DNA of 64,000 nt from Folioceros fuciformis (GCA_049999805.1 JBNGIO010006191.1:162151-226150); one strand, 5' to 3'. Shown: positions 1,207-59,045, counted from the first letter of the stretch. A program made the numbers and translations. Notes: a model not told the origin generated them from the letters alone.

Positions 1207-1680
1207 ATGGCGAAGATCAAGGTCCACGAGCTGCGGGGCAAGAGTAAGGCGGAGCTGCTGAACCAGCTGAAGGAGCTCAAGGCCGAGCTTGCCCTTTTGC
1301 GCGTCGCCAAAGTCACAGGCGGAGCCCCGAACAAGCTCAGCAAGATCAAGGTGGTGCGTTTGTCCATCGCGCAAGTGCTCACGGTTATCTCTCAGACTCA
1401 GAAGGCAGCTCTGCGGACCGCCTACGCCAAAAGCAGGCGCCTACCTCTGGACCTGAGGCCCAAGAAGACTAGGGCAATCAGGCGGCGGCTTACTAAGCAC
1501 CAGGTTTGTGATTTTTTTGATTTCTCCTCTGTGATTGCATCAGCGCGGTTGCGGCTACTGCAAATGAATTGCGCTTTTTCTCAAACAGTTTATGCTTGTG
1601 GTCAGGCTGCTGCCAAGACGGAACGACAGAAGAAGAGGGAGACTTACTTCCCTCTGCGCAAGTATGCAGTCAAGGCTTAG
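1207..1680 (+). CDS. RPL35: 60S ribosomal protein L35 (uL29); exons 1207-1503 and 1606-1680
   Basis: [51 protein letters not shown]...[15 protein letters not shown] intron at 1504-1605. Confidence 0.97.
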
Positions 1681-3167
1681 GGTTACTGGCGAAATGTATC
1701 ATCATCGCTTAGCTGGGATGCTATTAGTGAAGGCAGGTGCGTAGTGTCTTCAGGCAGCTCGGACATGCCGGGAGGCAATAGCCTGGTTGAGGAGATGCTG
1801 CTGAGGTCGCACCCCGGAACATTTTTTTTTTTGGTGTGAAGTGCGGAGAAGCGGAATGTGCCGGCTTCCTCCATGCCCGTAATTGAGAGATTTGCGGTTA
1901 TTACTGTCTTTCTGTTTTTTTTTTGGCTTGCTGCCCCATTTCCTTTTCTCCGATGGTACGTGGGTTTGGGAAATTCTATGAAGTACACAGGGAACAAGGT
2001 TTGAAAGACATGAATTTTCATAATTCGGCTTCCGGTGTTGGAAGAGCAGCGTTCAACAGCTGCAAGGATCCTCCAAGGGTGATTTCGCAACAGCATGCTC
2101 GATATAATGCTCTATCTGTATTACTTGTTGCCTTACGACACGTCTTGCAAACAAGTGCACCAGTCAGAGGTCCGCGCTACGTCATCCAGAATGACTCTGG
2201 TTTGATGCACCCCTCGTTTCTTTGTGCTGCACACGGAAGTCTGGCATCACGAGTGTCAGAAGCCGACAACTCCCGCGAAGTTGCTGAAACGCAAGAAAAG
2301 GTTCCAGCGTCAGGCCGCACATCGGCAACTAGCACCTCGTGTGATCATCGTTAGCTTCAGAGCCAGATAACAGCAAGTTCCATGTAACAATATCTCTTTG
2401 AGTTAGTGCTGTCGAAATCCTGGCCTGCACCTTCCAGTTCCGCACGTTTGATGTATGCCCACCGGAGGTTTTCCAAGCAGAGCGTTACTCAGCAATCCTC
2501 AATCATGCAATTGTAATCCTCTGGTGAGCCTGATGGAATGCGGCTGAGCAATGGAATTGAAGTGCTTGAAAGCCCCGTCCACCAGTCCCTCATGAATGTA
2601 TGCTAGTAGAAGGAATGAAAAGGTGCATCACTAGGCCGCATTCCGGCAACAAACATCTCCTCAATACCAGCTATTGCCTTGTGACCTCCATGATGTAGCC
2701 GTCCCTTATAGGGAATCCGTGCGGACCTTGATCCTCGTGCATTGCTCCGCTCAACATGGAGGGTTCGAACCACACCGGCACGAACAAGGAGGGGTAGAAC
2801 CAAACCGGCGCCCTAAACAGCTGATCCCCGGTCCAGTATTACGGAACGGGACGTCTTTGCGTATGCATTATCTAGGGTTGTGCGTACGCGGGATACAAAT
2901 TACGAAGAGGAAAAACCACAGGTATTTGTTGGGACCGAAGAATAAGAGCAATGAAACTACTCCGTCACACTCTGCTTGGAGCTCCAAGCGATCTCCACGA
3001 CACCACGGCAAGAGGGTCGAGTTCCGAGCTCGTAAGGCGTTTTAATCCATTGTGCATCGATCAGCAACAGACGGAAGCGGTGAGGCGCGACAAGTTGTTG
3101 CTAGACAGGTTCCTACAGGATTGGCATTTCTTCGTACAAGGCTGGTGTCCGGTTCCAAGGGCTGGCT

Positions 3168-4132
3168 ATGGCGGACTCGGGAGAAGGCCGCCCTTGTGGA
3201 GTGGCGGTGGCCGATGAGCACCCTCAGCAGTCTACGCCGTCCACGCAAGAGCAGGTCTAGTCGAGGCATTGTTAGGCCTTAGATACGATGCGTTCAGATC
3301 TTGGGAAATCAGCACGCGTCAAGGGCAGATGTCAAGCAGGTTTGGATGCGTTGGTAGGTGCGTCTCTTGTCTTACGATTTCGCCATGGATTTTTTGCAGG
3401 AGGCTGTGTTGAAAAAGAAATACGGGGGTCTTATTCCGAAGAAGCCACCGCTCATTTCGAAGGTGGGTGGGCCCCGAAGGATCTGGTCACATTTGCAGGA
3501 GCTGAAGGAATTCAGATTACGATTCATCAGTTCGGAATGTGCCTGTTTTAATATCTGCGTTCTGCATATGTCCACGAGGTGGGTAGAGGTTCTCCGTTAA
3601 GTAATCGGTGTTTTGAACAGGATCATGAGCGGGCCTTCTTCGACTCTGCGGATTGGGCTCTTGGAAAGGTAGGTTTCGCAGGATGGAGTGGATGGGAAGC
3701 CTCAGCTCGGAGCAGCGGTGGTTGATCTGCTTGTTCGCTGTCGTTGTGTGAAGCAGGGCACAGCACCAGGTGTGAAGCCTAGAAGTTCGGTGGAGTCACT
3801 TCGTCCCAAACTACAGGTAAAGCTGAAGCGTACAAACATGTTTTGCTGGCCCAGATTCAGATGCTTGCGTCATTCCTGTTGGGGATTCCTTGCCCTTGAG
3901 TTTAATGCTCCCACATTTCCAGCCAACACCACATCAACCTCTTCCATCTCGACGTGCATCTTACATTCCCTCAGCTGAAGAAATGGCAGGTAAACTGTTC
4001 TGTTTCTGACAGGGCATGACTAAGCGGCAAAGAGTTACAAGGGAAGTGTAAAGTATGCTCAAACATTTGAGACGTGTGTGTGAACTCTCCTCAGGAGAAG
4101 CAGGTGCAGAGGTGGAAACACCGGCCAGTTGA
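3168..4132 (+). CDS. Endosulfine / cAMP-regulated phosphoprotein 19-related protein; exons approx. 3168-3254, 3400-3462, 3621-3668, 3754-3816, 3923-3989, 4095-4132
   Basis: Spliced product contains KKYGGLIPKKPPLISK-DHERAFFDSADWALGK-Q...SLRPKLQ-PTPHQ, including the FDSADW endosulfine motif; GT-AG boundaries keep the frame. Confidence 0.9.
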
Positions 4133-4423
4133 GGTGACGTGAGGTCGGCTTGAGCGATGCAGCACCTTGTTAGCTTGAGACGAAGACGTTTCAGTGTGTA
4201 TTTTATTTCTTTGGTAATTCCAGTATGTTGTGTCTGAAGTAGTAATCAAGTTTGCCATTCAACTAGCTCTGCTTCTATGACGATTTTGGCGCGCAATCTC
4301 GCGTTGGAGACAAACAAGTCCCCATTCGGACTACTGGACACAGTCTAATGGACACACAAGTCACTGTAAGATTTATGTGCCCAAATTCCCACACATTGCA
4401 CAACCGATGATCTAAGTGTCATC

Positions 4424-4937
4424 CACCAGGTGGGTGGTGCCCGTGATATCTGGCAAAACGGGCATCTCACCCACCCTTGTGTGGCATCTCCCTTTGTGTG
4501 GCATCTCACCCTTTGTGTGGCATCTCACCCTTTGTGTGGCATCTCACCCTTTGTGTGGCATCTCACCCTTTGTGTGGCATCTCACCCTTGTGTGGCATCT
4601 CACCCTTGTGTGGCATCTCACCCTTATTTGGCATCTCACCCTTATTTGGCATCTCACTCCTGTGTGACATCCCATTCTTGTACGTCATCTCGTTATTGTG
4701 TGACATCTCCCTGTTGTGTGGCATCTCACTGTCGTGACAAGTCTTTTCACTGTATGCCCTAAAACTCCATCACATTACAAAAAACGGTCACCATGTTGTC
4801 TATTTTTGTGAATTTCAGACTTGAGTGTTAGAATTCCACAAGGCGACAAGGTGATATGTCACAACGTGTCTCGAGAGACATGACCCACAAGAGAGAAATG
4901 TCGACCTTGCCACATCTAACATACCACGCACATGGTG
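4424..4937. mobile_element. Putative non-autonomous TIR element (CACTA-like architecture) containing the minisatellite
   Basis: CACCAGGTGGGTGGT (4424-4438) versus reverse complement CACCATGTGCGTGGT of 4923-4937 (13/15 match); an inverted copy of the subrepeat at about 4851-4865; flanks ATC/TTC are an imperfect 3-bp TSD. Confidence 0.4.
4461..4730 (+). repeat. Minisatellite of 18-21 bp units GTGTGGCATCTCACCCTT(T)
   Basis: About a dozen directly visible copies that degenerate toward the 3' end. Confidence 0.95.
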
Positions 4938-5363
4938 TTCTCACGGACCAGAAATTAAAAACACTGCTGCCTTCGTGGGGCCAACTGGCTAGTCTTCTAT
5001 TATTCAGTTTCAGAAACGACTCTCAGAAATGACTCCTAGTTCCCTATACGACTTCTGGTAAAAGTTACTGTGTTTTGCCTGATCCTTTTCAAGGAACGAC
5101 TGCGATGAAATTCCCTTCTCAACTCCTGAAAGTGCAGTAGAATGGCTTACACCTTAAACCAAGCTAGCAGTGGAATTCGTTACTATTTAAACCACGCTAA
5201 CTGGAACTTGACTGTACAAAGCTAACCTTCCGGGACAAATATGGAGTCCATGGGGAATGAATAGTGTTACAATGGCCACTCACTGACGAGGACAAATGCC
5301 CCTACATTGAGATACCTTTTCTCAAATATAGGGAACTAATACTACAATTTGGTTCAAACAAGC

Positions 5364-8300
5364 TCAGGCCACAACTTCAGGATCCACCCAACGCCCGTGA
5401 TCCTTGATTAGCTGAATCAAGGAGTCAGTTGCTATGTCCATAGCGATTCCTCTCTTGACCACCTCCTGCAGTGGACACGGTGTGGGATTCTTTATGACAG
5501 CACAAACCACAAGAGCACGAAAATAGCTGAGACAGCATTTTCCTTCCACGCATACCTTCCCGACGTAGAGATCAATCTTCCCTGGAGCTCCACCGACATA
5601 ACCGAAGTCTGCGTCCGCCATTTCTCCCGGACCGTTCACAATGCAGCCCATGATAGCGATCTGCCAAAACAACCCACGGTGTGAGCAAGAAAGCGTCTCC
5701 ACCAACGGTTTAGAGCACTGTGGAGAGGAGTGGAAAGAGCACTCACCGAAACGCCTGGAAGATGGGAAGTTCGTTCTCGGATTTCGGCACTGATTTCCTG
5801 AAGGTCAAAAAGAGTCCTGCCGCAAGAAGGGCATGAGACGTACTCCTGCAAAGTGAACAAGTCATAGTTAGCACACTTTCCCGAGCGGACAACGAGCAGA
5901 AACGGCATAGCACAACCAACGGGCGCCTTCTTACCGTTTTGGTGTTCCGCATGCGGCAGCCTTGTAGTAATCCAAAGGAGGTGTTGCGAAGAAACTCAAA
6001 TTCTTGGTCAGTTGCTTCCAACAGCAAGCCATCGCCAAGCCCGTCTACAAGTAGGGCACCTACTTCGCTGCCTGTCTTAATCACCAAATCGTCTCTGCCA
6101 TGCAACATCTTAGATAATTGCAAAGATCAAACACACTTATTCCAACACAAGATTTTCCCACTGCAATACCTGTGGACTCCAGCGGGGAATTCCAAGTGGT
6201 GGATTACAGGGAAATCAAGCTGGTTCACTTGCAAGTATTCGAACAATCTGCAAACCCAAAAGATGGACGTCACCGTGAGACCGCAGCTGAGCACAAGACC
6301 GGTGAGCAAACGATATTTAAAGTGAGAACTGTGTGATGACCTTCTGGATGCATGCACTCGGCTCGACTCTGCATTCTCAGATAAGTTGATGAGGAGCATG
6401 GTTGCTTCCGTGTTCTTCAAGATGTCAAGTTTCTCATTTGCCTCATCTCCTTGCAATGTCACGGCAAATCGGGTACCTGCACAACCATGATATAGAGGGT
6501 TAAAAGGTTACCCGGCTGCTACACCTTTCATCCACCTGGCTGCGTTTTGCTGACTCACCTGCCGGTAAGGACTTGATTGAGTCCGAGGCAAGTTCCTCAA
6601 GGGTCACAAGGACCATGGCATGTGGGAGCGGCTTCGCGAGCTGCTGCGATAGCGGAGTCAGGACTCCCACGCTGATGTCAGTTAGTCTCTTTAGAGCCAG
6701 TCGCTGCACAGACGTCATTGTCACCTCATAAATGCCCAAGTTAATGCAACCACATTGGTTTTCTCCTCTAGCAATTGCTGAACATGAAGGCGTCACATGA
6801 GTGTCCTAGTGCTCACCGCTGCTTTGTCATCAACCGGAGGTAGCTCTCTCAGCAAGATTGTGTCCACAGTCGCAAGATCCTGCGCATAGAGGAACACGGT
6901 GCGTGACTATGAGACCTGAGAAACGTCTCAGCTGAAGGTTGTCGCACTGCATTAGTCCGGACAGGTTAACGAACCTTGTACGGCATGCCAATGATAAGTT
7001 TAGACGCCAGAGACCTGTACAGTGCTTCTGGGTTCTGCAGGGGGGAAAAAAAGGGTACCATTAACAAGCGTCCCACCATAAAGCAGAGTGTTCTTGCACA
7101 GAGACGCTGTAATCTTTCAAAAGATATCTTCATGCTTTACCTTCAACTGATCAAGGGAGACAGACATGAGAACTGAGCCGTCACGGTGGAGGACGCCTCT
7201 GTAATCCACTGCATCACCCTGCAAAATTGAATTGGCAATGATCAGGATTCCCGAAAGATCATGGATTTTCGTGTTATCCCAAAGCCAAGTCACGTATAAC
7301 TGAGGAAAGCAGTAGGTAATACCTCCTTTTGCACCGGAAGCTGTCCAGTTCGGCGCTGGAAATCGAAGTATCGGCGGTGCTTTTCCTCAAATGGTGCCTG
7401 GGGATGATAACACACCTGAACTGTCAAAGTTGTGCAAATCTCATAAAATGCATGAACTGGCAAGAGAGATATTTTCAGGAACATACCACTCCTTTCTGCA
7501 ATTCAGAAGCCCGCATACCCAACTTGGCCAACTTTGTGCAAGGGTCGATTTCGAACTCCGGGGCCTCTGTGAGGGAGACACGAATAGTGTCGCCCAGGCC
7601 ATCCTATACAAATTAGGCAGTAGATCAGCATCCAGGAAAGTTACTGTTGCCCACTGGAACCAGCAAAAACCGAAAGCCTTTGCTGACAGGGAAAGTGCAA
7701 ATCAACCTGCAGAAGGGCGCCGATGCCAATCGCTGACTTCATGCGACCATCCTCACCCTCGCCGGCCTCAGTAACTCCCAGATGCAGGGGATAATTCCAG
7801 CCGTTTACATACATTTCAGCCACCAGAAGGCGGTATGCTTGTACCATGACCACTGGGTTGCTAGCCTTCATTGAAAACACGAAGTTGTGGTAGTCCAGTT
7901 TGCGACAGATGCGAGCAAACTCAAAAGCCGACTCAACCTGTGGAGACACAGGAACCAAGACGCGTTAGACACAGGTCTCAAGGGGTGAGAAGGGATATAT
8001 ACGATGGGAAATCGTAGCAACATGCACTCCACACCCCTCACCATGCCCCTTGGAGAGTCACCGTAGTAGCTCATGATACGATCTGACAAACTTCCATGGT
8101 TTGTGCCAATTCGCATGGCCCGTCCATACTTTTTGCACTTCTCCACAAGAGGGGTGAAAACCTACACATGCACCACTGTGAACAGGGGCTCCCAGGCTTC
8201 AGAAGCACAAACAGGGGAGCATGACCAATGCGCACCTTCTCGATGTGCTCCAACTCTTGCTGGTAGTCATCCTCGGTGTATTCCAGTTTCTCAAACTGGG

Positions 8301-18488: not shown

Positions 18489-21140
18489 TCACGGTCTACC
18501 CTTACAACTACAAGACCCAGCTGTGAATCGATGCACACGGTACCCATCCCTTACAACAATGTTTCTCCGTTCAAGCCTTGACATGATCTCCGTGGAGCTA
18601 TGACAGTCACTGCACATGCGTAGATTCTTCGTTACCACCAGAGGTGTCCCACTCGGAGTGTTCAAGAGACCAAACGCCAGAGCTAGCTTCTCAGCATGCC
18701 CGCAAAGCAAGTCTTCCTTTTCCTTCTCACACAGTGGCTTCAACACTAGCTTGGTGTGAGGTACGTGGCCTCCTTCCTGCCTCATACGTGCGTTTGTGCT
18801 CTCTAACTTAAGAGCAATATCCTCTCGCCTTTCACCCACCAGAAATCGATGTACCTCCTTATTCACCTCAATGGTTGCCACTGCAGCTTTCTTGTTCGCT
18901 CCTGCTACCCTTCTCTGTGTTTCAATCCTGTCCACATCGGTCCACCTACCTGCATCTGCAAAGGCATTCGCCATGAGCACATAGGCAGGCGCCTCCTGGG
19001 GGTCCAACCGAAGGATGCTTTCAAAGCAACGGATCGCCCTCTCTAGATCACCGTGACTTTTGCAGGCATTCAACAAAGACGTCAACCCCACAACGTCCAC
19101 TTGGCTCCCACAAGACAAAAGCATATTCTCTGCCTCATCTAAATTGCCTGCACGCCCGAGAAGATCAATCATGCAATTGTAATGCTCCACAGTAGGTTTT
19201 ATGCCATGCTGTTCCGCCATGGAATCAAAGTGCTTGCGACCCTCCTGGACGAGTCCCTCATGACTGCATGCTACTAACAAGCACGCAAACGTGGCGCCAT
19301 CAGGCTGAACACCTGCAACCAACATCTCCTCAAAACAAGCTAGAGCCTTGCGACCCTCATCACAAGTACCATATCCAGATATCAGAGCGGACCATGTCAC
19401 CACATCCTTCGTGTTCATGCTGTTAAAGACCTGGCGCGCAGCTTCCAGTTCACCACATTTTGCATACATGTCCACCAGGCAGTTTCCCAGCATTACGTCA
19501 TCCAGCAGTCCTCTTCCCACAATCTGTGAGTGCAGCTGCCTGCCCATCTGTAAAGCACCAACGCTGGCACAGGCTTTCAGAAGTAAACCCAAAGTAAGGT
19601 GGTCAGCCAACATCAGACCCTCCTGCTCCATTTGTTCATACAGATCAAGCGCCTCTTGGCCGAGACCTTGCTGGGCATACCCGCCTATCAGGGCAGTCCA
19701 TGTAACCACATTTTTCGTGTTCATGCTGTCAAAAACCTGGCGTGCAGCTACCAGTTCACCACATTTTGCATACCCAGATATCAGGGCATTCCATGTTACC
19801 ACATCCTTTGTGACCATGCTATCAAAAACCTGGCGTGCATCTTTCAGTTTGCCACATTTTGCATATCCAGCAATCAGCACCGTCCATGTGACTACATCTT
19901 TCGAGGCCATGCTGTCAAAAACCTGACGTGCATCGTTCAGCTCGCCACATTTCGCATACATGTGCACCAGGATGTTGCCAACAAACAAGTTAGTGGGAAT
20001 GCCACACTGGACCACATCGCAGTGCACTTTTCTGCCAGATTCCAAGTCAGCAGAAAATGAACAGGCTTGAAGGGCAGCTACAAAGACGTGAGCATTCGCC
20101 TTCACTCCTGATCTGCGCATCTCATGGTACAGTTGTATGGCCTCATTGGGTTTCCCGTGTTTGGCATGTGCAGAGATAATGGAAAACCACATGAAAACAT
20201 TCGGTGTGGCCACGCTAGTGAACACATCCATGGCTTCCTGCAGCCTCCCTGCACATGCATACATGCGCAAGATATGGTTCCCCAAGTATGCACTCGACTC
20301 ATAACCTAGTTTGACAGTCAGATCATGAACTCTTCGCCCCATAACCAAATCCTTCTTAGCAGTACACAGTTTTAGCACAGTGTAGATCAGGGACTGAGAA
20401 ATAACAGAGTCAGACTGGGCCAGATATTCCAGGGCTCCAACGGCCTCAGATAGCCTCCCCTGCTGACATAAGATGCCCACGGTTCCAACCGTCCGCACGG
20501 CCATTTCCGATTCTGAACGCCGGCCAGGTTCAAGCGTATCCAGAGAGCTCCACTCGGAAGGAGAGGCACCATGACCACCCATCTGCATATCCAAGGCAAC
20601 GAGCTGCTCATCAACCCAAGCTGGCTTGAACATGCTGTTCAACCACAGCACCTCACCGGACCCTTTACGCCAGAAGTCAGGCGAACAGGAGCTCTCCTTG
20701 TACAGTCTGTTGTCCCACCACACTTCAGGGTCCAGAAAGAATTTTTGCCACAGGTGCTCCTGCTCCTGGCGACGACCATCGTTGGAAAACCCGACCTCGC
20801 CCACACATTCTCTCGGGAATGGAGGTGCTTGCCTTCTTACACTGCTGCACCTGGAGGCTCTGTTTGCCAGGCATTCACTCCCTAAAATGAGGTTAGTGGG
20901 AACTCCAAGTACAATCCCTGTAGACAGACGAACTTCTTGTGTCCACAACGGGATTAGCAAAAGTAAGGGCAACCTACGTGTTTGGATGTAGCCGTAGGTT
21001 GGCGGAGCCAGGGGGAGGTAGCTGCAGGTGCGACATCCTGGTGAACACAGCCGGATCCGGACGACAGTAGAGGAGGAGGATGAGCATGCCGCTGATGAAA
21101 GGCGTAGCAGGGAGCATAGGCGTCGCGCTGCTGAAGCCAT
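18489..21140 (-). CDS. Intronless PLS-class PPR protein with N-terminal PDF motif and C-terminal DYW:KP (GRP-ending) domain; candidate U-to-C organellar editing factor
   Basis: Transit-peptide-like start MASAARRLCSLLRLSS; P/L/S/SS motifs and E1/E2; KKAAVATIEV, HAEKLALAFG, CSDCH and terminal CSCKGRP. Confidence 0.93.
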   Translation of the reverse strand: MASAARRLCSLLRLSSAACSSSSSTVVRIRLCSPGCRTCSYLPLAPPTYGYIQTRRLPLLLLIPLWTQEVRLSTGIVLGVPTNLILGSECLANRASRCSSVRRQAPPFPRECVGEVGFSNDGRRQEQEHLWQKFFLDPEVWWDNRLYKESSCSPDFWRKGSGEVLWLNSMFKPAWVDEQLVALDMQMGGHGASPSEWSSLDTLEPGRRSESEMAVRTVGTVGILCQQGRLSEAVGALEYLAQSDSVISQSLIYTVLKLCTAKKDLVMGRRVHDLTVKLGYESSAYLGNHILRMYACAGRLQEAMDVFTSVATPNVFMWFSIISAHAKHGKPNEAIQLYHEMRRSGVKANAHVFVAALQACSFSADLESGRKVHCDVVQCGIPTNLFVGNILVHMYAKCGELNDARQVFDSMASKDVVTWTVLIAGYAKCGKLKDARQVFDSMVTKDVVTWNALISGYAKCGELVAARQVFDSMNTKNVVTWTALIGGYAQQGLGQEALDLYEQMEQEGLMLADHLTLGLLLKACASVGALQMGRQLHSQIVGRGLLDDVMLGNCLVDMYAKCGELEAARQVFNSMNTKDVVTWSALISGYGTCDEGRKALACFEEMLVAGVQPDGATFACLLVACSHEGLVQEGRKHFDSMAEQHGIKPTVEHYNCMIDLLGRAGNLDEAENMLLSCGSQVDVVGLTSLLNACKSHGDLERAIRCFESILRLDPQEAPAYVLMANAFADAGRWTDVDRIETQRRVAGANKKAAVATIEVNKEVHRFLVGERREDIALKLESTNARMRQEGGHVPHTKLVLKPLCEKEKEDLLCGHAEKLALAFGLLNTPSGTPLVVTKNLRMCSDCHSSTEIMSRLERRNIVVRDGYRVHRFTAGSCSCKGRP

Positions 21141-32838: not shown

Positions 32839-35460
32839 TCACGGCCTACCTTTACAACTGCAACAACCAGCTGCAAATCGATGCACACGATACCCATCCC
32901 TTACAACAATGTCCCTCTTTTCGAGCCGTGACATGATCTCCGTGGAACTGTGACAGTCGCTGCACATGCGTAGATTCTTCGTTACCACCAGGGGTGTCCC
33001 ACTCGGAGTGTTCAACAGACCATACGCCAGAGCTAACTTCTCAGCATGCCCGCACAGCGCATCTTCCTTCTCCTTCTCAGACAGTGGCTTCAACACCAGC
33101 TTTGTGTGAGGCACGTGACCTCCTTCCTGCTTCAGACGTGCATTTGTGCTCTCTACCTTCACAGCAATATCGTCTCTTCTTTCTCCCACTGCAAATGTAT
33201 GTACCTGCTTCCTCACCTCAATGGTCGCCACTGCAGGTTTCTTGTTAGCTCCTGCTACCGTTCTCTGTGTTTCAATTCTGTCTGCATCGCTCCACCTACC
33301 TGAATCTGCATAGGCATTGGCCATGAGCACATACGCAGACGCCCTTTGAGGGTCCAGCCTAACAAGGCTTTCAAAACACCACCTTGCCCTCGCTACATCC
33401 CCATGACTTTTGCATGCATACAGCAGAGACATCAACCCCACGACATCACCTTGACTCTCGCATGATAATAGCATCTTCTCAGCATCATGTAAATGGCCCG
33501 CACGCCCAAGAAGATCAATCATACAATTGTGATGCTCAGTAGTAGGCTTGATGCCATGCTCTTCAGCCATGCCATCGAAGTACTTGCGACCCTCGTCCAC
33601 CAGGCCCTCATGACTGCATGCCACTAGAAGGCAAGTAAAAGTAGCAGCATCAGGCTGAATACCGGCGACTAACATTTCCTCAAAACAAGCCAGTGCCTTA
33701 TGACCTTCACCACAGGTACCATACCCAGATATCAGGGCGGTCCAGGTCACCACATTCTTGGTGTTCATGCTATCGAAAGCCTGGCGTGCATCTCCCAGTT
33801 CACCACATTTTGCATACATGTCCACCAGGCAGGTGCCCACCACTACGTTATCCAGCAGTCCTCTTTCAACAATCTGCGAATGCAGCTGTCTGCCCTTCTG
33901 TAAGGCGCCAGTGGTTGCACAGGCCTTCAGAAGGCAAGCAAAAATAACACTATCAGACAAAATGAGGCCCGCTTCTTCCATCTGTCCATACAGCAAAAGA
34001 GCCTCTCCTCCGCGTCCTTGCTGTGTATACCCATCAATCAGGGCCGTCCATGTCACCACGTCCTTTGTGGCCATGTTGTCAAAGGCGTGGCGTGCAGCTT
34101 CCAGTTCGCCACATTTTGCATACATGCCCACCAGGGAGTTCCCCACCACAGCGTTATGCAACAGCCCTTTTTCAACAATCTGTGAGTGGAGTTGCCTGCC
34201 CTTCTGCAAGGCACCAGTGCTTCCACAGGCCTTCAGGAGGCAAGCAAAAGTAACACGGTCAGCCAAAATAAGACCCACCTCCTCCATTTGTCCATACACC
34301 ACAAGAGCCTCTTGGCCGAGTCCTTGCTGTGCATACCCAGCAATCAGGGCATTCCATGTCACCACATCCTTTGAGGCCATGCTGTCAAAGACATGGCGTG
34401 CATCTTTCATTTTGCCACATTTTGCATACATATCCACCAGGCAGGTGCCAACGAACACGTCAGGAGGAATGCCACTGAGCAACACATCACCGTGCACTTT
34501 TCTCCCAGATTCCAAGTCGGCAGCAAATGCACAAGCTTGAAGGGCAGCTACAAAAACATGGGCATCCGCCTTCACTCCTGACCTACGCATCTCATGGTAC
34601 AACTGGACTGCCTCACTAGGTTTCCCATGTTTAGCATGGGCAGAGATGATAGAAGACCAGCTGAAAACATCTGCTTTGCCTACCCTGATGAACACATCCA
34701 TGGCCTCCTCTAGCCTGCCTCCACATGCATACATACGCAAGATATGATTCCCCACGTACGCAATCGACTCGTACCCAAGTTTGACCGTGAGATGATGAAC
34801 TCGTCGCCCCAAAACCAAATCCTTGTTCGCTGTACACAGTTTCAGCACAGTGCAACACAAAGACACGGAAATGGCAGAGCCTGTCTGCGCCAGAGATTCC
34901 AGGGCTCCTACGGCCTCAGACAGCCTCCTCTGCTGACAAAACAAGCTCACGGTTCCAGGCGTTACGACGCCGATTTCCGATCCTGCCCGCTTGCCAGGTT
35001 CAGGCTTAACCGGAGAGCCGGAGTTGGTAGGCGAGGCACCTTGAGCCGTGTCCATATTCAAGGAAACGAGCTTTTCATCAACCCAAGCTGGCTTGAACTC
35101 GCTGTTTAACCAGAGGACCTCCCCGGACCCCTTGCGCTGGAAGTCAGGCGAACGGGAGCTCTGCTTAACCCGTCTGTTGTCCCACCACATGGCAGGCTCC
35201 AGAAAGAATTGTTCCCACAAGTGCTCCTGCTCCTGGCAACGCCCGGCATCGCTGGGAAAACTGTCTCCACTCACCCATTTCCTCGGAGATGGGAGTGTTG
35301 GGCTCCTTACACTGCTGCATCTACAGCCTTCATTGTTTGCCATCAATTCACTCCCAACGGCGACGTGAGCGGGTCTCGGAGTTCCTACTAGGATCCCTCT
35401 GTACGTACACGAGCGGATTTGTTGGGTCCATGACTGATCCGGTTGCCACAGTGCGGCCAT
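32839..35460 (-). CDS. Intronless PLS-class PPR protein with N-terminal PDF motif and DYW:KP (GRP-ending) domain; paralog of 18489-21140
   Basis: KKPAVATIEV (KP box), HAEKLALAYG, CSDCH and terminal CCSCKGRP; closely similar to the upstream paralog. The start codon is less certain. Confidence 0.92.
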   Translation of the reverse strand: MAALWQPDQSWTQQIRSCTYRGILVGTPRPAHVAVGSELMANNEGCRCSSVRSPTLPSPRKWVSGDSFPSDAGRCQEQEHLWEQFFLEPAMWWDNRRVKQSSRSPDFQRKGSGEVLWLNSEFKPAWVDEKLVSLNMDTAQGASPTNSGSPVKPEPGKRAGSEIGVVTPGTVSLFCQQRRLSEAVGALESLAQTGSAISVSLCCTVLKLCTANKDLVLGRRVHHLTVKLGYESIAYVGNHILRMYACGGRLEEAMDVFIRVGKADVFSWSSIISAHAKHGKPSEAVQLYHEMRRSGVKADAHVFVAALQACAFAADLESGRKVHGDVLLSGIPPDVFVGTCLVDMYAKCGKMKDARHVFDSMASKDVVTWNALIAGYAQQGLGQEALVVYGQMEEVGLILADRVTFACLLKACGSTGALQKGRQLHSQIVEKGLLHNAVVGNSLVGMYAKCGELEAARHAFDNMATKDVVTWTALIDGYTQQGRGGEALLLYGQMEEAGLILSDSVIFACLLKACATTGALQKGRQLHSQIVERGLLDNVVVGTCLVDMYAKCGELGDARQAFDSMNTKNVVTWTALISGYGTCGEGHKALACFEEMLVAGIQPDAATFTCLLVACSHEGLVDEGRKYFDGMAEEHGIKPTTEHHNCMIDLLGRAGHLHDAEKMLLSCESQGDVVGLMSLLYACKSHGDVARARWCFESLVRLDPQRASAYVLMANAYADSGRWSDADRIETQRTVAGANKKPAVATIEVRKQVHTFAVGERRDDIAVKVESTNARLKQEGGHVPHTKLVLKPLSEKEKEDALCGHAEKLALAYGLLNTPSGTPLVVTKNLRMCSDCHSSTEIMSRLEKRDIVVRDGYRVHRFAAGCCSCKGRP

Positions 35461-50299: not shown

Positions 50300-52920
50300 C
50301 CAGCATCTTCAGTTCCCAGAATTTGTGGGTGGGTACGGGGTTTACCGGCGATGGTCGTCGCCAGGAGCAAGAGCATCTGTAGCAACAATTTTTTGTGTAC
50401 CGTATCATGCCGTAGGATCACAGACGAGCTTATAAGATCTACCGATCGTCAGACTTCCGGCGTGAGTGGTCCGGCGAGGTTCCGTGGTAAACCATCACCT
50501 GTAAGCCAGCGTGGGTGATGAGCAGCCGTTACCTTGGATATGCACACGGGTGATGGTATCCACACTACCCGACCTTCCAAGCTGAGCTTTCTGGACCTGG
50601 CAGGCGTGCGTGATCGGGATGGGCGTAGTAAAGGTTGGAACCGTGAGCATGTTGTATCAGGAAGGGGAGCTTCATGAGGCCTTCGGAGCCCTGGAATCTC
50701 TGGCGCAGAGACTCTGCTATTTCTCAGTCTCTGTTTTGCACTGTCCTAAAACAGAATTTGGTTATGGGGCGACATATGCACAACTTCAGTGTCAAACTTG
50801 GGTACAATTCGATTGCATCCAGGGCGAACTGCATGTATATAAGTACATTCAGGTAGGGTATAGGAGGCCATGGATGTGTTCAGCAGGTAGGCAAAGCAGA
50901 TGTTTTCGCCTTTCTTCCAGCATCTCTGCATACGCTAAACATGGGAAACCTAATGAGGCAGTGCGTTGGTCCGGAGTGAAAGTGAAGGCTATTGCTTACG
51001 TCTTTGTCGCTGCTCTTTCAGCTTGTGCATCTTCTGCTGACTTGGAATCTGGCAAGGAAGTGCACTGTGATGCAGTGCAGGGTGGCATTTCTCCCGGCTT
51101 GTTTGCTGGCGCCAGCCTGGTGGACATACATGCAAAATGTGGTGAACTGAAACATGCACGCCTGGGTTTTCATAGCATGGGCACAAAGAATATGGTGACA
51201 TGGAGTGCCCTGATAGCTCGGTATGCAAACTGCAGTGACTGAATAATGCACGTGAGGTTTTTCACAGTATAACCGGACAGGACGTGGTGACGTTGCTCAT
51301 CTTTTGGCAGCAATTCTTGGCAAACATCGGTCTGAATCTTATTTCTGGTTTCATACAGAAGGGCAGGCGCTGCTCTCACTGATTGTTGAATGAGGTCTGC
51401 TGGATGGCAAACTGGTGAGCAACCGCTTGGTGGACACTTATACAGAATGTGGTGAACTGAACTGTTCGTTGTCCGCGTAAGGTGTTGTGGCTTAGATGGG
51501 TATACACAGTAAGGACTCGGTCAAGAGGCGCTTGACTGCATGGACAACTGGACCTCAATTTGGCTGAAAATTTTACTTTCGCTTGCCTGATGGCGCTGAT
51601 GACTCTCAAAAGGTCAAACAGCTGCACTTGCAGACTAACGCAAGAGGACTGCTGGATAACACACTGGTGGGCATGCAAGCAAAATGTGGTCAACTGATGA
51701 TGCACGCCAGATTTTTAACAGCTCGGCCACACACCTCGGCAAAGCTCCTTTTTTCTTAACAACTTTCCCCCGAAACCATGGAAGAAAAGGGGCATTGAAG
51801 TGAAAAAAAGTGGCACCCATGAATCCTAGTTTTTGAGAAAAATGACTTTTAGATATTTTTTTAAGAGAAAAATAATTTTCTATTCCATATGCTAGAAAAT
51901 ATATCTCTTCTGGGTATTATCACATAAGTTATATCACATAAGTTTTTATTTCTAAGTAATAAAAAACAATTTTCATTAAAACAATTTTAAATCCCCAAGT
52001 AAAAATTATTTGCCAAGGTCTGCAATCAATGGTGCCCTAGAGAACGGCAGGCATCTGCACTCACAAATTGTGGAACGAGGACTGCTGGATAACATAGTGT
52101 TGTGCACCTAGCTGGTGGCCATATCTGCAACACGTGGTGAACTGCAAGAGGCACGCCAGGTGCTTGACAGCAAGTTCCCTGACATCTGGGTATGGTGCTT
52201 GCGATGGTGGCCAGATACTAGAGCTCAAGCTTGTTTTGAGAAGATTTCTTTTGTCGCTAGTACACAGCCTGCTCTTTCTCCTTTGAGTAGCAGCTAGTCA
52301 TGATGGACTAGTCCACCGTCTGATTCCATCGCTGAACGGTGATGCATCCTACTATTGAGCACTACACCGGCGTGATCTTCTTGATCGAAGGGGCCATTTA
52401 GATGGGGCAAAGACGATGCTATTATCATGTCAAGGTACAGGGGCATTGACGCCTTCGTTGAATGCTTGCCAAAGTTACAGAAAAAGAGGGGGGCGATGTG
52501 GTGTCTTGAAAGCAGTGATAGACTGGAACGTCCTGGTGTGGTTGTGAAGGCTTTGTGGGGCTGGTTCCCCAGGCACGCACATGTGCTGATGGCAAATTCG
52601 TATGCGGACGCGGGTAGGGGGGCCGATGTAGACAGGACTCAGACACAGAAAAGTGGCAGGAGGTAGCGAGAAACTTGCAGTCGGGATTATTGAGCTGAGT
52701 AAGCCGGTTCAGGTTCTGGTTGGTGTAAGGAGAGGATGTTGGGCTCAACGTATACAATACCAGTGCACGTGTGAAGCAGGAAGGTCACAGAATTTGTGTT
52801 GAAGCCACAGTATGAGAAGGTGCTTGCTAGATGTGCCCACCATCTACCTCCGACTTTGAGTGGGACACCACTGGTAGTCGAGAAGACTCGGTGGTGTGAG
52901 TCTATTTCCTTTCCGACCAT
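50300..52920 (+). pseudogene. Decayed PDF-PPR-DYW:KP paralog, opposite orientation to the intact copies
   Basis: Remnants RQEQEHL, GTVSMLYQEGELHEAFGALESLAQ, AYAKHGKPNEAV, ACASSADLESGKEVH, AHVLMANSYADAGR and SGTPLVV, with many frameshifts and stops. Confidence 0.85.
51730..52022. mobile_element. AT-rich MITE-like insertion in the PPR pseudogene
   Basis: CACACCTCGGCAAA (51730-51743) versus reverse complement CAGACCTTGGCAAA of 52009-52022 (12/14 match); abrupt AT-rich interior; no clear TSD. Confidence 0.5.
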
Positions 52921-53284
52921 CAAAAATACAGTCACACTGAACTTAATTTCTACTTAGTTATTCGAGCCAATATCTGTTTAGGCACTCAAGCCTGAACTGT
53001 AACTTCAATCACAATCTGAGAGAATTTCAATCATGGTCTCTTGGCCATTGCAACATTTGTCGACTTCTTCAGGCGCAATCAGAATTCATTGGAATAATAC
53101 CCAATCCTTCAAGGAAACACAAATGCGAATTGGTGAATGTGCCGCATCATGTTCGTAGCAGGAGCACCGGATAACCGCTGGGGAAAACCTCCAGTTCGCA
53201 TTACACAAATTACCCAGTTGAAGTTGCGAGTGGCGTCTTAGCCACCCGTAGATACCATTGTCGTATTTAATATACAAGGAACTT

Positions 53285-54192
53285 TCACGGCAAAGCTTCC
53301 GGAAACAAGAGCTTCAACCTGGATTTGAGAGAGTCTTCAATCGTGGTCGGTTCGGCCATAGCTCCGTTTCCGACGTCGCCACAAGCAAGCACTTTCGGAA
53401 TAGGACTAATTATCACAACGCCAAGTTCTTCAAGAACCTTCAAATGCGGCTTGGTGAAAGGACTATCCCACATCAACGTGTTCATAGCTGGAGCGACAAA
53501 GAACGGCTTTGAAAAATCCCAAGCTCGCACGATGCAAGTTACCAAATTGTCACAAATGCCATTGGCAACCTGCAAAAGGACAGAAACAGTGAGCTAATTG
53601 CACTGCACCATCTCGGCAGTATGAACCTGTGTAGACAAATGAAAGTAGACGGACTGCGACCTACACAAGGGTGACCTGCACGAAGTCCTGATGTAGGTCA
53701 ACTTCTCAGTATACCAGACACAAGTCTAGGATGTATGAGAACGAGACCGAAACACTCTTGCACATTAGGAGGGGTCAAAGTTAGAGTAGATCTCAAATCT
53801 TCGACAGTGACAAAAATGTGCGTGACCTACGACATAAATCAAGACGCCAATGGGCAATCATGGGATGTTCTGACCTTAGCAAGCGTGTTGGCAGAAAGAG
53901 GGGCAATCACTAAGGCATCGGCCCATCGCCTTAACTCAATATGAAGGACAGTGTCCCCTTTCTTCGTCCAGCTTGACCACTCGTGTTCATCGGTATACAA
54001 TGCCACACCGGGTGACAGAGATCTGGAGTCGATGAAGTGCAACGCCGACTTGGTGACTACAACGGCTACCTCCGCCCACTGCGACACGCCGACCGCAAGC
54101 GCAGTGAGCTTTATGGCTGCCACGCTTCCTGTCGCCGCAACGATGACGCGGGGCTTCCTCGGCTTGGACTCGACACCGCCACCGGACGCCAT
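53285..54192 (-). CDS. HAL3: Phosphopantothenoylcysteine decarboxylase (HAL3 flavoprotein); exons 54192-53875 and 53569-53285
   Basis: KPRVIVAATGSVAAIK, VLHIELRRWADALVIAPLSANTLAK-VANGICDNLVTCIVRAWD, APAMNTLMW, LACGDVGNGAMAEP; the catalytic His and Cys are present. Confidence 0.96.
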
Positions 54193-54238
54193 ACGGCCAC
54201 AAAACCTAATGTCCACAGCAGCCCATACGACGGTGTCC

Positions 54239-54665
54239 TCGGGCGTCAGCCACAGTCCGCCCAGCAGCAGGGACCGTACACTGCGCTCTTCTGGCACGGA
54301 GCTTGTCCTGCGGCTTCCTGCTTAATCCAGTTTGCTGCCCGCTTCACCTCTTGTTGCACGGTTGAGCAAAACATTAGTTGCCAAGACACGCAAGGGGCCG
54401 TTCGAGAACATCCACAAGCGGGATGTCACAGACCACTTGCCTACAGCAAGCGGCTAGCTGATACTTCAGCACATTGCACTCTCCAAAGAAATTAGACACG
54501 GAATGTTCGGGACACCTCTTGAACTGCTTGACGCTCTGCACAGGAAGCAACTTGAAGACTCCACTAATCGCATCCCAACTGCTGCACAAGCGAGACATCC
54601 TTGATCGCGGAGTTCACTTACGTTCGGGCACACAGGATCCTGGCGGAAAGCCAGCTCTGGCAGGT
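54239..54665 (-). pseudogene. Disabled CMC2 copy directly upstream of the intact HAL3
   Basis: Homologous to 57722-58151, but the ATG-CAT start is missing, the intron-2 acceptor is GTGCAA instead of GTGCAG, the last exon has a net 2-nt deletion, and the TGA stop is CGA. Confidence 0.85.
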
Positions 54666-55188
54666 TTTTGCCCTAGAGTGCCACCAACGTGCTAGTGGGT
54701 ACTTCAAAATATGGAACGAGTGATCGGAGTGCCCTATAACCACAAACGTCACCGGACCCGGGCCCAACGACTAGCCCCCACCGGGAACAACAGGTCAAAT
54801 GTTAACATGTACATCTTGCTTTGTTTTCTTGATGATAACAGAAACTCAACTTCTGATCTCGTCCTCCGCTTCACATAGAATACTTAAATTAGTTGTACTT
54901 GGGGGTTGATTTAGGGTGATTGCCGGTCTTCGTGAGTGATAGAAGGAAGAGCAACAAGAAGTTGACGATGGTGGCACCATGGGAGGCAAAGAAGATCCGC
55001 GCATACTAGGCAAACTACGAATTTAGGTGTAACGCATATCTCTATCGTCGGACAAGATCTCTGACATACCAAAGAATTTTTGCAGATCTTGTCCAGCAAT
55101 GGAGAGCAGCCAATCACAAGACCATGGAAACTGTATCTAATACAAAATCCACATTATGGGATATCGCCTTATTCACCTCAATATGCAT

Positions 55189-56540
55189 TCAAGCCGCTGT
55201 TACGGAGCTTTTCCGTTTTCTTCTGAAGTACACGGTCCAAGAGTATATTTCCAGTACCATAGCAATGCCCGCTAGTATCGCCAACACTGCAACATACACT
55301 TTCCTTCTGCTGCTTTGGTCAAGGCCGACGTGTGCAAAGAGATTGAAGCCAAGAAATATGTTGGTGGTTGCCAGAAGAATGGCGAGGTAGCCAGCTGTAT
55401 GGTGGTAAAGATTCCACAAATAACGAACTTTGTGCTCTTTGTGTGGCCGCAGGACAAGTGCCAGCACCTATCATCAGTAGCAAACACAGCGCAAATGTCA
55501 GTTCATCTCTGCAAGAAACTATCATTTTTTAGTTCATGCAAACACTAGTCTTAGAGGAGAGAGAAGCACCTGAAGTGTAGATAGCGCGAAGACAACTGTA
55601 CCAATAGCCCCGTGAGTGATACGTTTGTCATCTCGGTTGTCCACTGCGTATCGCAACCTGATTCCGACAGCCCAGCCTGCCAATCCGAGGATGTACCCCG
55701 ACACTTGGAAGGTTATGTGAGCATAGAACCAGATAGGGTCAAGGGACTTGAAGGGCCTAGCGTATCTGGCGACAATCACTCCAACAGGTAGAAGGAAGCC
55801 CCAGGCCACGGCGTTCAGGATTGCATGATTCTGTACGAAATGGGAGCACAGAGTTTAGTCTGCAGTAAAGTATAGCAGATCCACACGGAGAAGCATAACG
55901 CACAGGTACCCACAAATTTGAGCTGCCGGTAAGGATAAACTCCTGGAGGGGCAACTCCAGGACCCCTGCTTGTCAGGGAAATGGTGGAGAAGTAGTTCTC
56001 GTAATCGTTGCCATTATCATGTGCCACAGGCACGCCACCTCTAACAGGTCCAGAATTCCACAGCAGATTCAAGGACTCCGCACTGTACAAAACGGAAGCG
56101 AAGATCTTCACGGTATCCGTGCCGAACTCTGCAGAGTAGTTAAGAGCGGTGACAAGTCGCTCCCCGGGAGTGGTGAGCGGCTTACCATCGTTCTGGCTGC
56201 GGCCCATTTGGAAGGGCTTCACAACCGTCAGCCCAGCAACATCTCGCCAAGCTAGAAAGGCAGCGGAACCCGACATCCTGGCGGGGTGAAGGGGATTGAT
56301 CCCCCATCCTGACCACCGCTGGGTGGTTGCCGTAGTGTGAGCAGTGTAGGCACCAAGCAGTGTACCGTCATCATGGCTCCACGCGAAGGAAGCCCCGTTG
56401 GGTAGGCTCAGGCAAGCACCCAAATTCAAAACTGACCCATTGATCTCGAAAGTCTGGCTACACTGCTGCGAGTAAACCAAACCCTGCAAAATGCACAACG
56501 CAGCAGCTGAACACCACAGCACAATCAAGGAGGATGTCAT
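55189..56540 (-). CDS. DOMON + cytochrome b561 protein (AIR12/CYBDOM family); exons 56540-55914, 55830-55570, 55467-55189
   Basis: Signal peptide; DOMON WSGWGINP...MSGSAAFLA; b561 HAILNAVAWGFLLPVG, WFYAHITFQ, THGAIG, LQVLALVLRP, WNLYHHTAGY. Confidence 0.93.
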
Positions 56541-56779
56541 CGTGAAATTTGAAAAGGATCTGACGCTCTAACTGTCACCACTACCTTCACCTGATGAGCT
56601 CGGCCCAGGTCCTATTAGTCTAGTACGCGATTCGCGAAATCCAACTGGCCCTTTCTCGGAAGCCCGGCTTGCTCTTGCCTCGAATGTTCGGGCACTAGTC
56701 GGCTCCTGCAGTAATTCGGCACCGTACAAAATAGCTAAGGTACATATGGTGGGAGCCGTAGGGTCTGTACTGTTGCAGG

Positions 56780-57675
56780 TAGCAAAAGTCGATCTCGAGT
56801 TGAGTACATATGTGTGGTTGGTTCGGACATTGCTCCATTACCGACTTCTCCAAGACAAGAATTTTGGAAGAGGATTGATGATGATAGCATCAAGTTCTTC
56901 AAGACCCTCAAAGACGGCTTCTAAAGATGGACTTATCCCACGTCAACGTGTTCTGCGAAGGGGCAGCCAAAAACTGGTCTCGAATAATCCAAGCTCACAC
57001 GCTGCAGGTACCAAGTTGTCACAGATGCCATTTGCACCCTACACAAGAACAGAAGCCGTGAGAACGTTGGACAACACTGGGGACATGAATACGCTAGTGG
57101 AACGTGTACGGAGTGTGGCCTACACGAAGTTCTCAATGTAGGTTTACATCGTAAACCCGAGACAATTCTAACAGGGCTAGCGCTCTGTGAGAACGATACC
57201 AAAATAGTCAGGCACATGATCAGGAGTTGAGGTAGGCGTGGATCGAAATCGTCGAGGGTGACAAAAATGTGCGTGATTTCTGACATCCAAACCTCAGTAC
57301 GCAATCACAGGGCGCTCTCACCTTGGAGAACGCGTTGTGAGAAAGAGGGGCAATGTTAAAGGCATCAGCCCATCGCCATCGTTCGATATCAAGCACATTG
57401 TCCCATTCTCCTCCACCTTGACCACTCCTCTTATCCGTGGACAATCCAACACCAAGTGACAGGCGGCAGCTGAACCGGTGTACAATCCAACAAAAGGGTG
57501 AGTGACAAAGGGCTAGAGTCCATGAAGTGCAACTCAGATTTGGTGAGGCTACCTCCGCCCCACTGGGACGTGCCGATAGCAAGCGCAGTGAGCTTTATGG
57601 CAGCCAACCTTGCAGTAGCCGCCACGATGGCGGGAGACTCCTTGGCTCGGAGTCGGAACCGCCACCAGAAGTCAT
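56780..57675 (-). pseudogene. Frameshifted HAL3/PPCDC duplicate
   Basis: Starts MTSGGGSDSEPR then frameshifts to a TAA after 26 codons; remnants AIVAATARLAAIKLTALA, WRWADAFNIAPLSHNAFSK and ANGICDNLVP; same intron position as the intact copy. Confidence 0.9.
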
Positions 57676-57721
57676 GCGGCCGCAAAACCTAGTCCCCGCA
57701 ACACTGCATGACAAAGTGTCC

Positions 57722-58151
57722 TCAGGAATCAGCCACGGTTTGCCTAGCGGCAGGCACCGCAACTTGCGCTCGTCTGGCACGGAGCCGTTCCTGCGACTTC
57801 TTGCTTGCTTCAAGGTTTGCTGCACGATTCACCTCTTTCTGCACGGGAGAGCAAAAACTGAGCTGCCATAGCACGCGAGGCGCCACTCAACAAATCCACA
57901 AGCGGGATGTCACAAACCTCTTGCCGGAAGCAAGCATCCAGCTGATACTTCAGCAAATTGCACTCGCCAAAGAATTTGGCCACGGGATGCTCGTCATGAC
58001 ACCTTCTGAACTGCTTGATGATCTGCACATGCAATTGGGAAACTTCACACACTGCATCCCAAGCGCTGCACAGACAAGTCATCCCCTGGCAAAGCAGTTC
58101 GCTTACGTCCGAGCAACTAGGATGCTTGTGCAAAACCAGCTGTGGATGCAT
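57722..58151 (-). CDS. CMC2: Mitochondrial twin CX9C COX assembly protein (Cmc1/CMC2-like), 88 aa; exons 58151-58107, 58022-57918, 57838-57722
   Basis: MHPQLVLHKHPSCSD-IIKQFRRCHDEHPVAKFFGECNLLKYQLDACFRQE-KEVNRAANLEASKKSQERL...; two CX9C motifs; GT-AG phase-0 introns. Confidence 0.92.
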
Positions 58152-58418: not shown

Positions 58419-58502
58419 TGTCAGAAGTGGGATTTGAACCCACGCCCCCTTTCGAAGACCAGAACTTGAGTCTGGCGCCTTAGACCACTCGGCCATCCTG
58501 AC
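58419..58502 (-). tRNA. tRNA-Leu (CAA)
   Basis: Reverse complement GTCAGGATGGCCGAGTGGTCTAAGGCGCCAGACTCAAGTTCTGGTCTTCGAAAGGGGGCGTGGGTTCAAATCCCACTTCTGACA has A and B boxes, a CAA anticodon and a long variable arm. Confidence 0.97.
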
Positions 58503-59045
58503 TTCCTCATAACTTTCCATGACTTTTTAATTATTTAACTTAAAAATCTAATCCCACCAGAAATCTATGCACCTCGATAGTTGTCACTACGCCGGGTTTC
58601 ATGTTACCTCCTGCTGCCACTCTCAAGGTCTGGATCCTGTCTGCATCAGCCCACCTGCTTGCATCTGGGCACCACCTAACATGAGTAACTTTATCCCCGT
58701 CGTCGTCGTCACTAATTGATAAAAGAATTAGGGAGCTTTAGTGCGTGAATGAGGTTCTACCCCTTCCCAAATCTTAGTCCCTTTGTGTAGACGGTACTAG
58801 GCATCTCACGAATCAGACCGCTTGTTAAGCATTCCTACCACGGGTTGTTTTGATTATTCAAAATTTCAATTGTTTTTCGAAACTCTAGTCAGTATTCACA
58901 ACAGCGTTACACAAAGGAGTACAATCCGTGTTTGAAAAGACAGCTTGAATAGTACCACTTTCAAGAATCACTATTGGCTAGGTGCAGCTAGATCCAACGA
59001 GTGTGTGATGTGACTCTCCATGTTTTATTCGTGCCTCTAGCCCAC

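Follow-up and report, generated by a model that had tools for sequence, protein, structure and literature searches.

How does a eukaryotic bicistronic gene turn into ordinary genes? This question is raised by a locus in a 64,000-nucleotide (nt) stretch of DNA from Folioceros fuciformis (GCA_049999805.1 JBNGIO010006191.1:162151-226150), the whole of which we call the window. Here a CMC2 gene followed directly by a HAL3/PPCDC gene occurs twice, and each of the two copies has kept only one of the two open reading frames (ORFs) intact. Comparison of the copies with each other and with related loci makes it likely that this lineage inherited a CMC2-HAL3 bicistron and then resolved it by duplication and complementary loss.

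Repeat finding and global alignment delimited a block of about 1.33 kb on the minus strand at 58145-56814, which recurs about 3.48 kb away at 54660-53343. Sensitive blastn paired the same two intervals (56814-58145 and 53343-54660) with 69.6% identity over 1386 columns and an E-value of 0. We refer to the pair at the higher coordinates as copy 2 and to the other as copy 1. Ungapped identity between them was 67-81% per segment and alike for the CMC2 exons, both CMC2 introns, the inter-ORF spacer, the HAL3 exons and the HAL3 intron, which indicates that the duplication is old and that the dead halves have been drifting neutrally. The flanks outside the block aligned no better than shuffled sequences, with the observed score being reached by 178 of 300 and 257 of 300 shuffles, and the block is therefore a true, bounded duplication. 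All genes of the locus lie on the minus strand with CMC2 ahead of HAL3 in both copies, and both inter-ORF spacers are exactly 46 nt long and align with each other without a gap. The identical order, strand and spacer indicate that the unit consisted of CMC2, 46 nt and HAL3 when it was duplicated.

In copy 2 the upstream gene is intact. Its three exons are all in phase 0 and joined over GT..AG introns, a TGA at 57724-57722 closes the frame, and the encoded protein of 88 amino acids (aa) carries two Cx9C motifs (twin-Cx9C). Exon 2 alone matched the Pfam family Cmc1 (PF08583, E 2e-7), and the protein aligned with the CMC2 ORFs of five metagenomic loci (L009, L057, L063, L073 and L076) and of a Riccia protein (P0015), all of which are described below; the upstream ORF of the unit is a Cmc1-like twin-Cx9C ORF. 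As to its assignment to CMC2 or CMC1, Pfam has one family for both, and an N-terminal MHPxL motif, which we take to resemble that of animal CMC2, is common to all loci. The algal ortholog carries the name CMC2 in the supplementary datasets of Duenas et al. 2025 (PMC11892635). The HAL3 that follows in copy 2 is dead. A 1-nt deletion after codon 12 shifts the frame, five further indel events (one of them a 46-nt insertion) disrupt the exon-1 equivalent, each exon equivalent has six gap events in total, and stops occur in all three frames. The codon for the catalytic His in the LHIELRRW stretch now encodes Asp, and the ACGD motif has lost its Cys. A rescue of this HAL3 by alternative splicing was ruled out by the stops in every frame and the lost catalytic codons.

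Copy 1 is found in the reciprocal state. Its HAL3 carries PF02441 in both exons and aligned end to end with AtHAL3a (PDB 1E20) over residues 13-192 (E 7e-39 and 3e-35), keeping the stretches LHIELRRW, PLSANTLAK, PAMNTLMW and ACGDxGNGAM. The full Flavoprotein domain, the active-site His, PxSANT(L), PAMNxxMW and the Cys of the ACGD clamp are thus all present; we take the roles of these elements to be those described in work on AtHAL3a. The 1MVL chain differs from 1E20 exactly at the ACGD Cys. The CMC2 ahead of this HAL3 has its ATG replaced by AAC, a 3-nt deletion in exon 2 and a 2-nt deletion in exon 3, AA in place of the intron-2 acceptor AG, and CGA in place of the TGA stop. Three of its four splice dinucleotides survive, a number that is uninformative at 70% identity. 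The dead CMC2 might be transcribed as the 5' leader of HAL3, to which we give slightly less than an even chance.

The locus agrees in every point with the original prediction, which had described a block of CMC2 and HAL3 present twice with 46 nt between CMC2 stop and HAL3 ATG each time, one copy with an intact CMC2 and a HAL3 frameshifted near codon 13, the other with an intact HAL3 and a CMC2 without ATG, acceptor AG, frame and stop. The duplication was recovered by blastn pairing and per-segment identity, the spacers have the stated length (Table 1), and the 88-aa ORF, the deletion after codon 12 and the alignment of the copies bear out the state of each gene. Since each ORF is alive in one copy, both were functional at the time of duplication; since neither copy has both ORFs intact, the window holds derivatives of a bicistron and not a working one. 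Both copies could also be partly decayed extras, the function being carried by a further intact unit, or by intact genes apart from each other, at another place in the genome, and the occurrence of a third, partial HAL3 exon 2, located directly downstream of the intact HAL3 and without a counterpart in copy 2, fits this idea in that local duplication has been recurrent here. However, at a neutral divergence of about 25-30% both surviving ORFs have stayed fully intact, with all conserved CMC2 residues and all HAL3 motifs aligned to AtHAL3a kept, which speaks for purifying selection acting on exactly one ORF in each copy. We therefore regard such an absence of reciprocal resolution as improbable.

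Table 1. Positions of the two CMC2-HAL3 copies and of neighbouring features, counted from the first nucleotide of the window
Feature	Position	Strand	Basis and remarks
Copy 2 CMC2, intact	57722..58151	-	exons 58151-58107, 58022-57918 and 57838-57722, including the TGA stop
Copy 2 inter-ORF spacer, 46 nt	57676..57721	-	holds a six-codon upstream ORF (uORF), 57709-57689
Copy 2 HAL3 remnant, dead	56764..57675	-	alignment and three-frame translation; 3' limit approximate
Copy 1 CMC2 remnant, dead	54239..54666	-	alignment to copy 2; candidate HAL3 5' leader
Copy 1 inter-ORF spacer, 46 nt	54193..54238	-	ungapped against copy 2; six-codon uORF, 54226-54206
Copy 1 HAL3/PPCDC, intact	53287..54192	-	exons 54192-53875 and 53569-53287; 200 aa
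Third, partial HAL3 exon 2 copy	53003..53220	-	65.8% identity over 240 columns to 53312-53549, E 7e-17
Three-exon gene between the copies (DUF568/DOMON-like domain and membrane part)	55189..56540	-	exon translations
tRNA-Leu(CAA) gene	58419..58502	-	about 270 nt upstream of the CMC2 start

The gene pair itself is kept in algae and in a liverwort. In the green algae it is already on record as a bicistron, in supplementary tables only. Iso-Seq of Auxenochlorella protothecoides identified 43 loci with ORFs exclusively on one transcript, and locus UTEX250_A10.26400/26395 of this alga is labelled 'CMC2/COAC1' in Datasets S1B and S2B of Duenas, Craig, Gallaher, Moseley and Merchant (PNAS 2025; PMC11892635), with the InterPro names Cmc1-like and PPC decarboxylase in Dataset S5. 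Dataset S1B gives a 5' untranslated region (UTR) of 37 nt, 276 nt for ORF 1, 1100 nt for ORF 2 and 2 nt between them, with 0 AUG in the 5'UTR, ORF 1 or the inter-ORF (PMC11892635). Dataset S2B records colinearity of the two genes for Prototheca cutis, Chlorella vulgaris, Nannochloris desiccata and Coccomyxa, and the entry for Chlorella sorokiniana reads 'PACBIO' (PMC11892635). The unit in the window resembles this algal locus in having a Cmc1-like twin-Cx9C ORF without in-frame Met upstream and a PPC decarboxylase downstream, both on one strand, in the same order and at a very short distance (46 nt in both copies, where about 150 nt was the largest distance considered for such a pair). The two differ in that both algal ORFs are intact and lie on one transcript supported by Iso-Seq, with a 2-nt inter-ORF and no upstream AUGs, whereas the unit in the window, known from DNA alone and from a land-plant-like genome, is present in two copies with one live ORF each and has a 46-nt spacer that contains an AUG. 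The original prediction had named as decisive against it the case that no relative carries both ORFs intact on one mRNA; we looked for such a relative, and A. protothecoides is one.

Additional evidence for the linkage came from metagenomic contigs, which we searched with HAL3 exon 1 (P0001). At least 594 stretches matched, 208 of them encoding a relative, and the best 80 of these 208 were kept. CMC2 was then sought in the 80 HAL3 loci by tblastn with the CMC2 of the window and with a hidden Markov model (HMM) built from six CMC2 sequences. Both methods pointed to the same 12 loci, and all 12 CMC2 homologs were located upstream of HAL3 on the same strand, with none elsewhere in any of the 80 loci. 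The 12 are partly redundant and fall into about five deeper sequence groups (L009; L057-L060 and L063; L073 and L076; L053 and L054; L034 and L049). Where both ORFs were intronless and intact, CMC2 stop and HAL3 ATG were separated by 39 nt (L009), 29 nt (L057), 43 nt (L063), 134 nt (L073) and 125 nt (L076); a spacer of about 32 nt in L049, based on our reading of its exons, brings the measured spacers to six of the 12 linked loci. Pfam searches found both Cmc1 and Flavoprotein for the ORFs of L009, L057 and L073. A chance adjacency of the two genes was ruled out by the same order in about five independent lineages. A further twin-Cx9C ORF near HAL3 was absent from the 24 other loci that were scanned by motif, the one match to the pattern, in L012, being Cys-rich and missed by the CMC2 HMM. 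In a HAL3 tree from a quick, unfinished search, for which L049 and L060 were left out with fewer than 100 aa extractable, the window grouped with the grass loci L001-L003, and the CMC2-linked loci clustered with two label changes needed, a value as low as this occurring in 1 of 500 shuffles.

The linked loci also varied in the form of HAL3 and in gene density. The HAL3 ORFs of L034 (2421-4892) and L049 (2397-4370) are 657-823 aa long with a long Gly/Ala-rich low-complexity N-terminal extension, and those of L073 (526-1515) and L076 (4455-5465) are 329-336 aa long with a long Lys-rich one. Locus L009 is very gene-dense at 918-5743: a 399-aa ORF stops 118 nt short of CMC2, and on the opposite strand an 872-aa ORF ends 25 nt past the HAL3 stop, CMC2 and HAL3 still being the closest pair at 39 nt.

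Land-plant relatives were obtained by searching the longer proteins of a database with HAL3 exon 1 as query, which returned 374 matches at E <=1e-20, 120 of them listed. Among these 120, the best named HAL3 relatives were from land plants (Riccia 74%, Selaginella 73%, Calypogeia 71%, Physcomitrium 68%) and none exceeded 74%, which marks the window as land-plant-like and without a close relative in that collection. PF02441 and PF08583 occurred together in one of the 120, the 385-aa protein R1flu_002825 of Riccia fluitans (P0015). Its residues 29-100 (MHPPL...KLRAR) are 63% identical to the CMC2 of the window over 72 aa and its residues 131-311 are 72% identical to the HAL3, with eight residues between the CMC2 part and an internal Met that opens the HAL3 part. 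The entry is probably an automatic model that splices two adjacent ORFs, and probably a mis-annotated bicistron; by it, this liverwort apparently has an intact CMC2 directly upstream of an intact HAL3. The model further includes 28 extra residues ahead of the MHPPL start and a doubtful C-terminal tail. Other fused CMC2-HAL3 proteins were not found, with no match among 28 longer-protein candidates for the L009 CMC2 ORF as query and P0015 itself as the sole match among 15 candidates of 211-674 aa for its own CMC2 part, both being weak negatives. Among the same HAL3 entries, nine from angiosperms (P0004-P0012; 301-739 aa) reached about twice the bits of an ordinary 200-aa HAL3 against exon 1, which suggests models with two HAL3 domains, either merged tandem genes or true repeats.

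These relatives bear on the question whether CMC2 and HAL3 were simply adjacent, independent genes that were never co-transcribed in this lineage. HAL3 would then be transcribed from a start of its own within exon 3 of CMC2 or within the spacer, transcripts of CMC2 would end within HAL3, and the 46-nt gap would result from compactness. The region is indeed gene-dense, with about 220 nt from the copy-2 remnant to the next ATG and about 530 nt from the stop of the intervening gene to copy 1, and the AUG content of the window, discussed below, is also in line with independent genes. However, the same ORF order with spacers of 2-134 nt is seen in Trebouxiophyceae (as published), in about five algal-like lineages and in the liverwort model, the pair is on one transcript in A. 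protothecoides by Iso-Seq, and 46 nt are too short for a polyadenylation site and a promoter. We consider independent genes highly improbable. An inherited bicistron is the most economical reading because the homologous unit is a single transcript in a trebouxiophyte, has short AUG-free spacers in several algal-like lineages and is seemingly intact in a liverwort.

On this reading, the ancestral unit of CMC2, 46-nt spacer and HAL3/PPCDC would be the land-plant counterpart of the green-algal CMC2/COAC1 and would have been transcribed into one capped mRNA carrying both ORFs. The 5' ORF would encode a small mitochondrial twin-Cx9C assembly factor of cytochrome oxidase (COX), and the downstream ORF the coenzyme A (CoA) pathway enzyme phosphopantothenoylcysteine decarboxylase. 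Ribosomes would reach the HAL3 ORF by scanning past the CMC2 AUG (leaky scanning), as has been shown experimentally for other algal bicistrons. A local duplication would then have copied the block from about codon 3 of CMC2 to about 55 nt before the HAL3 stop, after which copy 2 would have kept CMC2 and lost HAL3 and copy 1 would have kept HAL3 without a usable CMC2, turning the bicistron into two monocistronic genes. What we infer here from DNA is that both ORFs were co-transcribed in this lineage when the block was duplicated, how they were translated, and how the present transcripts are structured.

The AUG content of the related loci is in keeping with leaky scanning. Between CMC2 start and HAL3 start, loci L009, L057, L063, L073 and L076 are free of ATG in all frames, while 3.0-6.7 per locus would be expected from mononucleotide composition; a conservative null of shuffled ORF 1 codons gave P values of 0.30, 0.05 and 0.16 for three independent groups. 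This matches the AUG depletion that Duenas et al. tie to leaky scanning. In their A. protothecoides assays, a stronger Kozak context of ORF 1 lowered the output of ORF 2, insertion of an AUG in the inter-ORF more than halved it, and removal of the ORF 1 start raised the ORF 2 reporter more than 5-fold (PMC11892635 and preprint). The latter effect provides a rationale for separating the two ORFs.

Several observations weigh against an inherited and later resolved bicistron. Copy 2 shows no AUG depletion, with 3 ATGs against 4.9 expected, two of them out of frame inside CMC2 and one in the spacer. The spacer ATG is the only ATG upstream of HAL3 that is common to both copies and is therefore probably ancestral, whereas those found in one copy alone may be younger than the split. 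A six-codon uORF begins at the spacer ATG (MQCCGD* in copy 2, MGCCGH* in copy 1), with 13 nt between its end and the ATG of HAL3. Because of this shared AUG, the missing depletion and the loss of ORF 2 output upon inter-ORF AUG insertion in the published assay, simple leaky scanning fits poorly, and reinitiation after the six-codon uORF would be needed. Further, 68 of the 80 metagenomic HAL3 loci were without CMC2, although many of them are probably from bacteria or non-green eukaryotes or short of upstream flank. Loci L001-L003 are 91-97% identical to Sorghum HAL3, and in the panicoid-grass locus L002 (91%) no CMC2 was found within its 930-nt upstream flank, so that the linkage is missing in at least one grass; together with the CMC2/COAC1 row of Dataset S2B, in which no Chlamydomonas entry is shown (PMC11892635), this indicates that the linkage is not universal. 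As to Riccia, the fusion comes from an automatic gene model and not from a transcript. Finally, the two copies have no alignable sequence in common upstream of the CMC2 start, and one of them is driven by a promoter from outside the duplicated block. The ancestral dicistronic mRNA of the original prediction is thus favoured by the Iso-Seq bicistron of A. protothecoides, the 12 of 80 metagenomic loci and the Riccia model, and finds no support in the AUG content of the window.

The missing upstream homology also allows another route to the same outcome, in which the duplicated block began just inside CMC2. Copy 1 would then have been born as HAL3 only, without CMC2 start and promoter, would have come under a newly recruited promoter, and only afterwards would the HAL3 of copy 2 have decayed. 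Homology between the copies starts at 58145 and 54660, 6 nt into CMC2, and of these initial 6 nt only 2 are identical. The upstream flanks are at the chance level given above (178 of 300 shuffles), with a best local match of 15 of 18 positions, itself at chance level. The block ends about 55 nt before the HAL3 stop, which places both breakpoints near ORF ends. On the other hand, at about 70% identity a breakpoint cannot be placed within about 10-20 nt, and the 15 of 18 match (58183-58166 against 54684-54667) is colinear and would agree with a loss of the ATG in a 14-nt deletion, although it is not significant. The four further lesions in the CMC2 of copy 1 are expected under either route. We see a truncated duplication as a possible course of events that we would not favour.

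The same point applies to duplication-degeneration-complementation, the subfunctionalisation model of Force, Lynch and co-workers, which the original prediction had invoked. One ORF has been kept per copy, and if the two paralogs with their complementary losses from an ancestral unit are the only carriers of these functions, both would have to be kept, as in the model. The locus departs from it in that the subfunctions are whole ORFs of a bicistron instead of regulatory modules, and in that one loss possibly stems from the duplication breakpoint instead of later mutation, copy 1 perhaps having been truncated from birth.

Two sets of known bicistrons can be compared with the CMC2-HAL3 unit. CDC26-TTM3, still an intact bicistron in angiosperms, likewise combines a small upstream ORF with a metabolic enzyme on one transcript and is kept in Chlorophyta and land plants. 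It consists of other genes, and CMC2 and HAL3 differ from it in being unlinked in the grass locus L002 and split in the window. The primary paper on CDC26-TTM3 is Lorenzo-Orts et al. 2019. Those loci of Chlamydomonas and Chromochloris that are exclusively polycistronic (Gallaher et al. 2021; PMC7896298) have the same architecture, and several pairs include small mitochondrial assembly factors, among them LYR proteins and COA6. No entry for HAL3, PPCDC or Cmc1 was found in seven supplementary files of that study, and CMC2 and COAC1 were not mentioned in the main texts of PMC11892635 and PMC7896298. A full-text literature search returned no paper pairing CMC2 with HAL3, the sole record found being the supplementary tables for Trebouxiophyceae, and nothing relevant on bicistronic or polycistronic genes in bryophytes. 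What is new here is the apparent persistence of the unit into bryophytes and, as read from the two copies, its fission by reciprocal decay.

Some features of the surroundings should be noted. The gene between the copies encodes a DUF568/DOMON-like domain in exon 1 (PF04526, E 2e-8), and its last exon gave a match to cytochrome b561 (PF03188) that, with E 0.005, stayed below the cut-off. Its earlier designation as 'CYBDOM' is therefore correct in position and DOMON-like domain, lacks an above-threshold cytochrome b561 match, and is plausible as a name. The tRNA-Leu(CAA) gene leaves room of only about 270 nt for the promoter of the copy-2 CMC2. A dispersed repeat family (52021-52820, 33072-33919, 18722-19569, 58566-58667 and 51346-51722), about 64-74% identical and partly inverted, is represented by pieces on either side of the CMC2/HAL3 cluster. 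The family may be a transposable element and may bear on the movement of the block.

In plants and algae, nuclear bicistronic genes have come to be known recently, and CDC26-TTM3 is the only pair we met in the literature as common to green algae and land plants. The locus described here, the Riccia model and the metagenomic loci suggest CMC2-PPCDC as a second ancient pair. A more far-reaching reading, to which we give less than an even chance, is that it is the second bicistron after CDC26-TTM3 from the ancestor of green algae and land plants, that it survived into bryophytes and was dismantled here, that the dead CMC2 now serves as a spliced, uORF-bearing leader tuning HAL3 translation, and that both proteins were thereby freed from the inverse translational coupling of leaky scanning. 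Genome annotation easily overlooks small upstream ORFs such as CMC2 or fuses them wrongly, of which the Riccia model is an example. Bryophytes with an intact unit and the split unit of this genome would offer a testable system, and hornworts and liverworts are transformable (PMC10952725). The reciprocal decay of two copies represents a concrete route for the loss of a bicistron, a state already reached in a grass. If the more far-reaching reading is true, the locus would show by a natural, worked example how bicistrons of eukaryotes turn into ordinary genes, and it would also hint that for about a billion years COX assembly was co-regulated with CoA synthesis.

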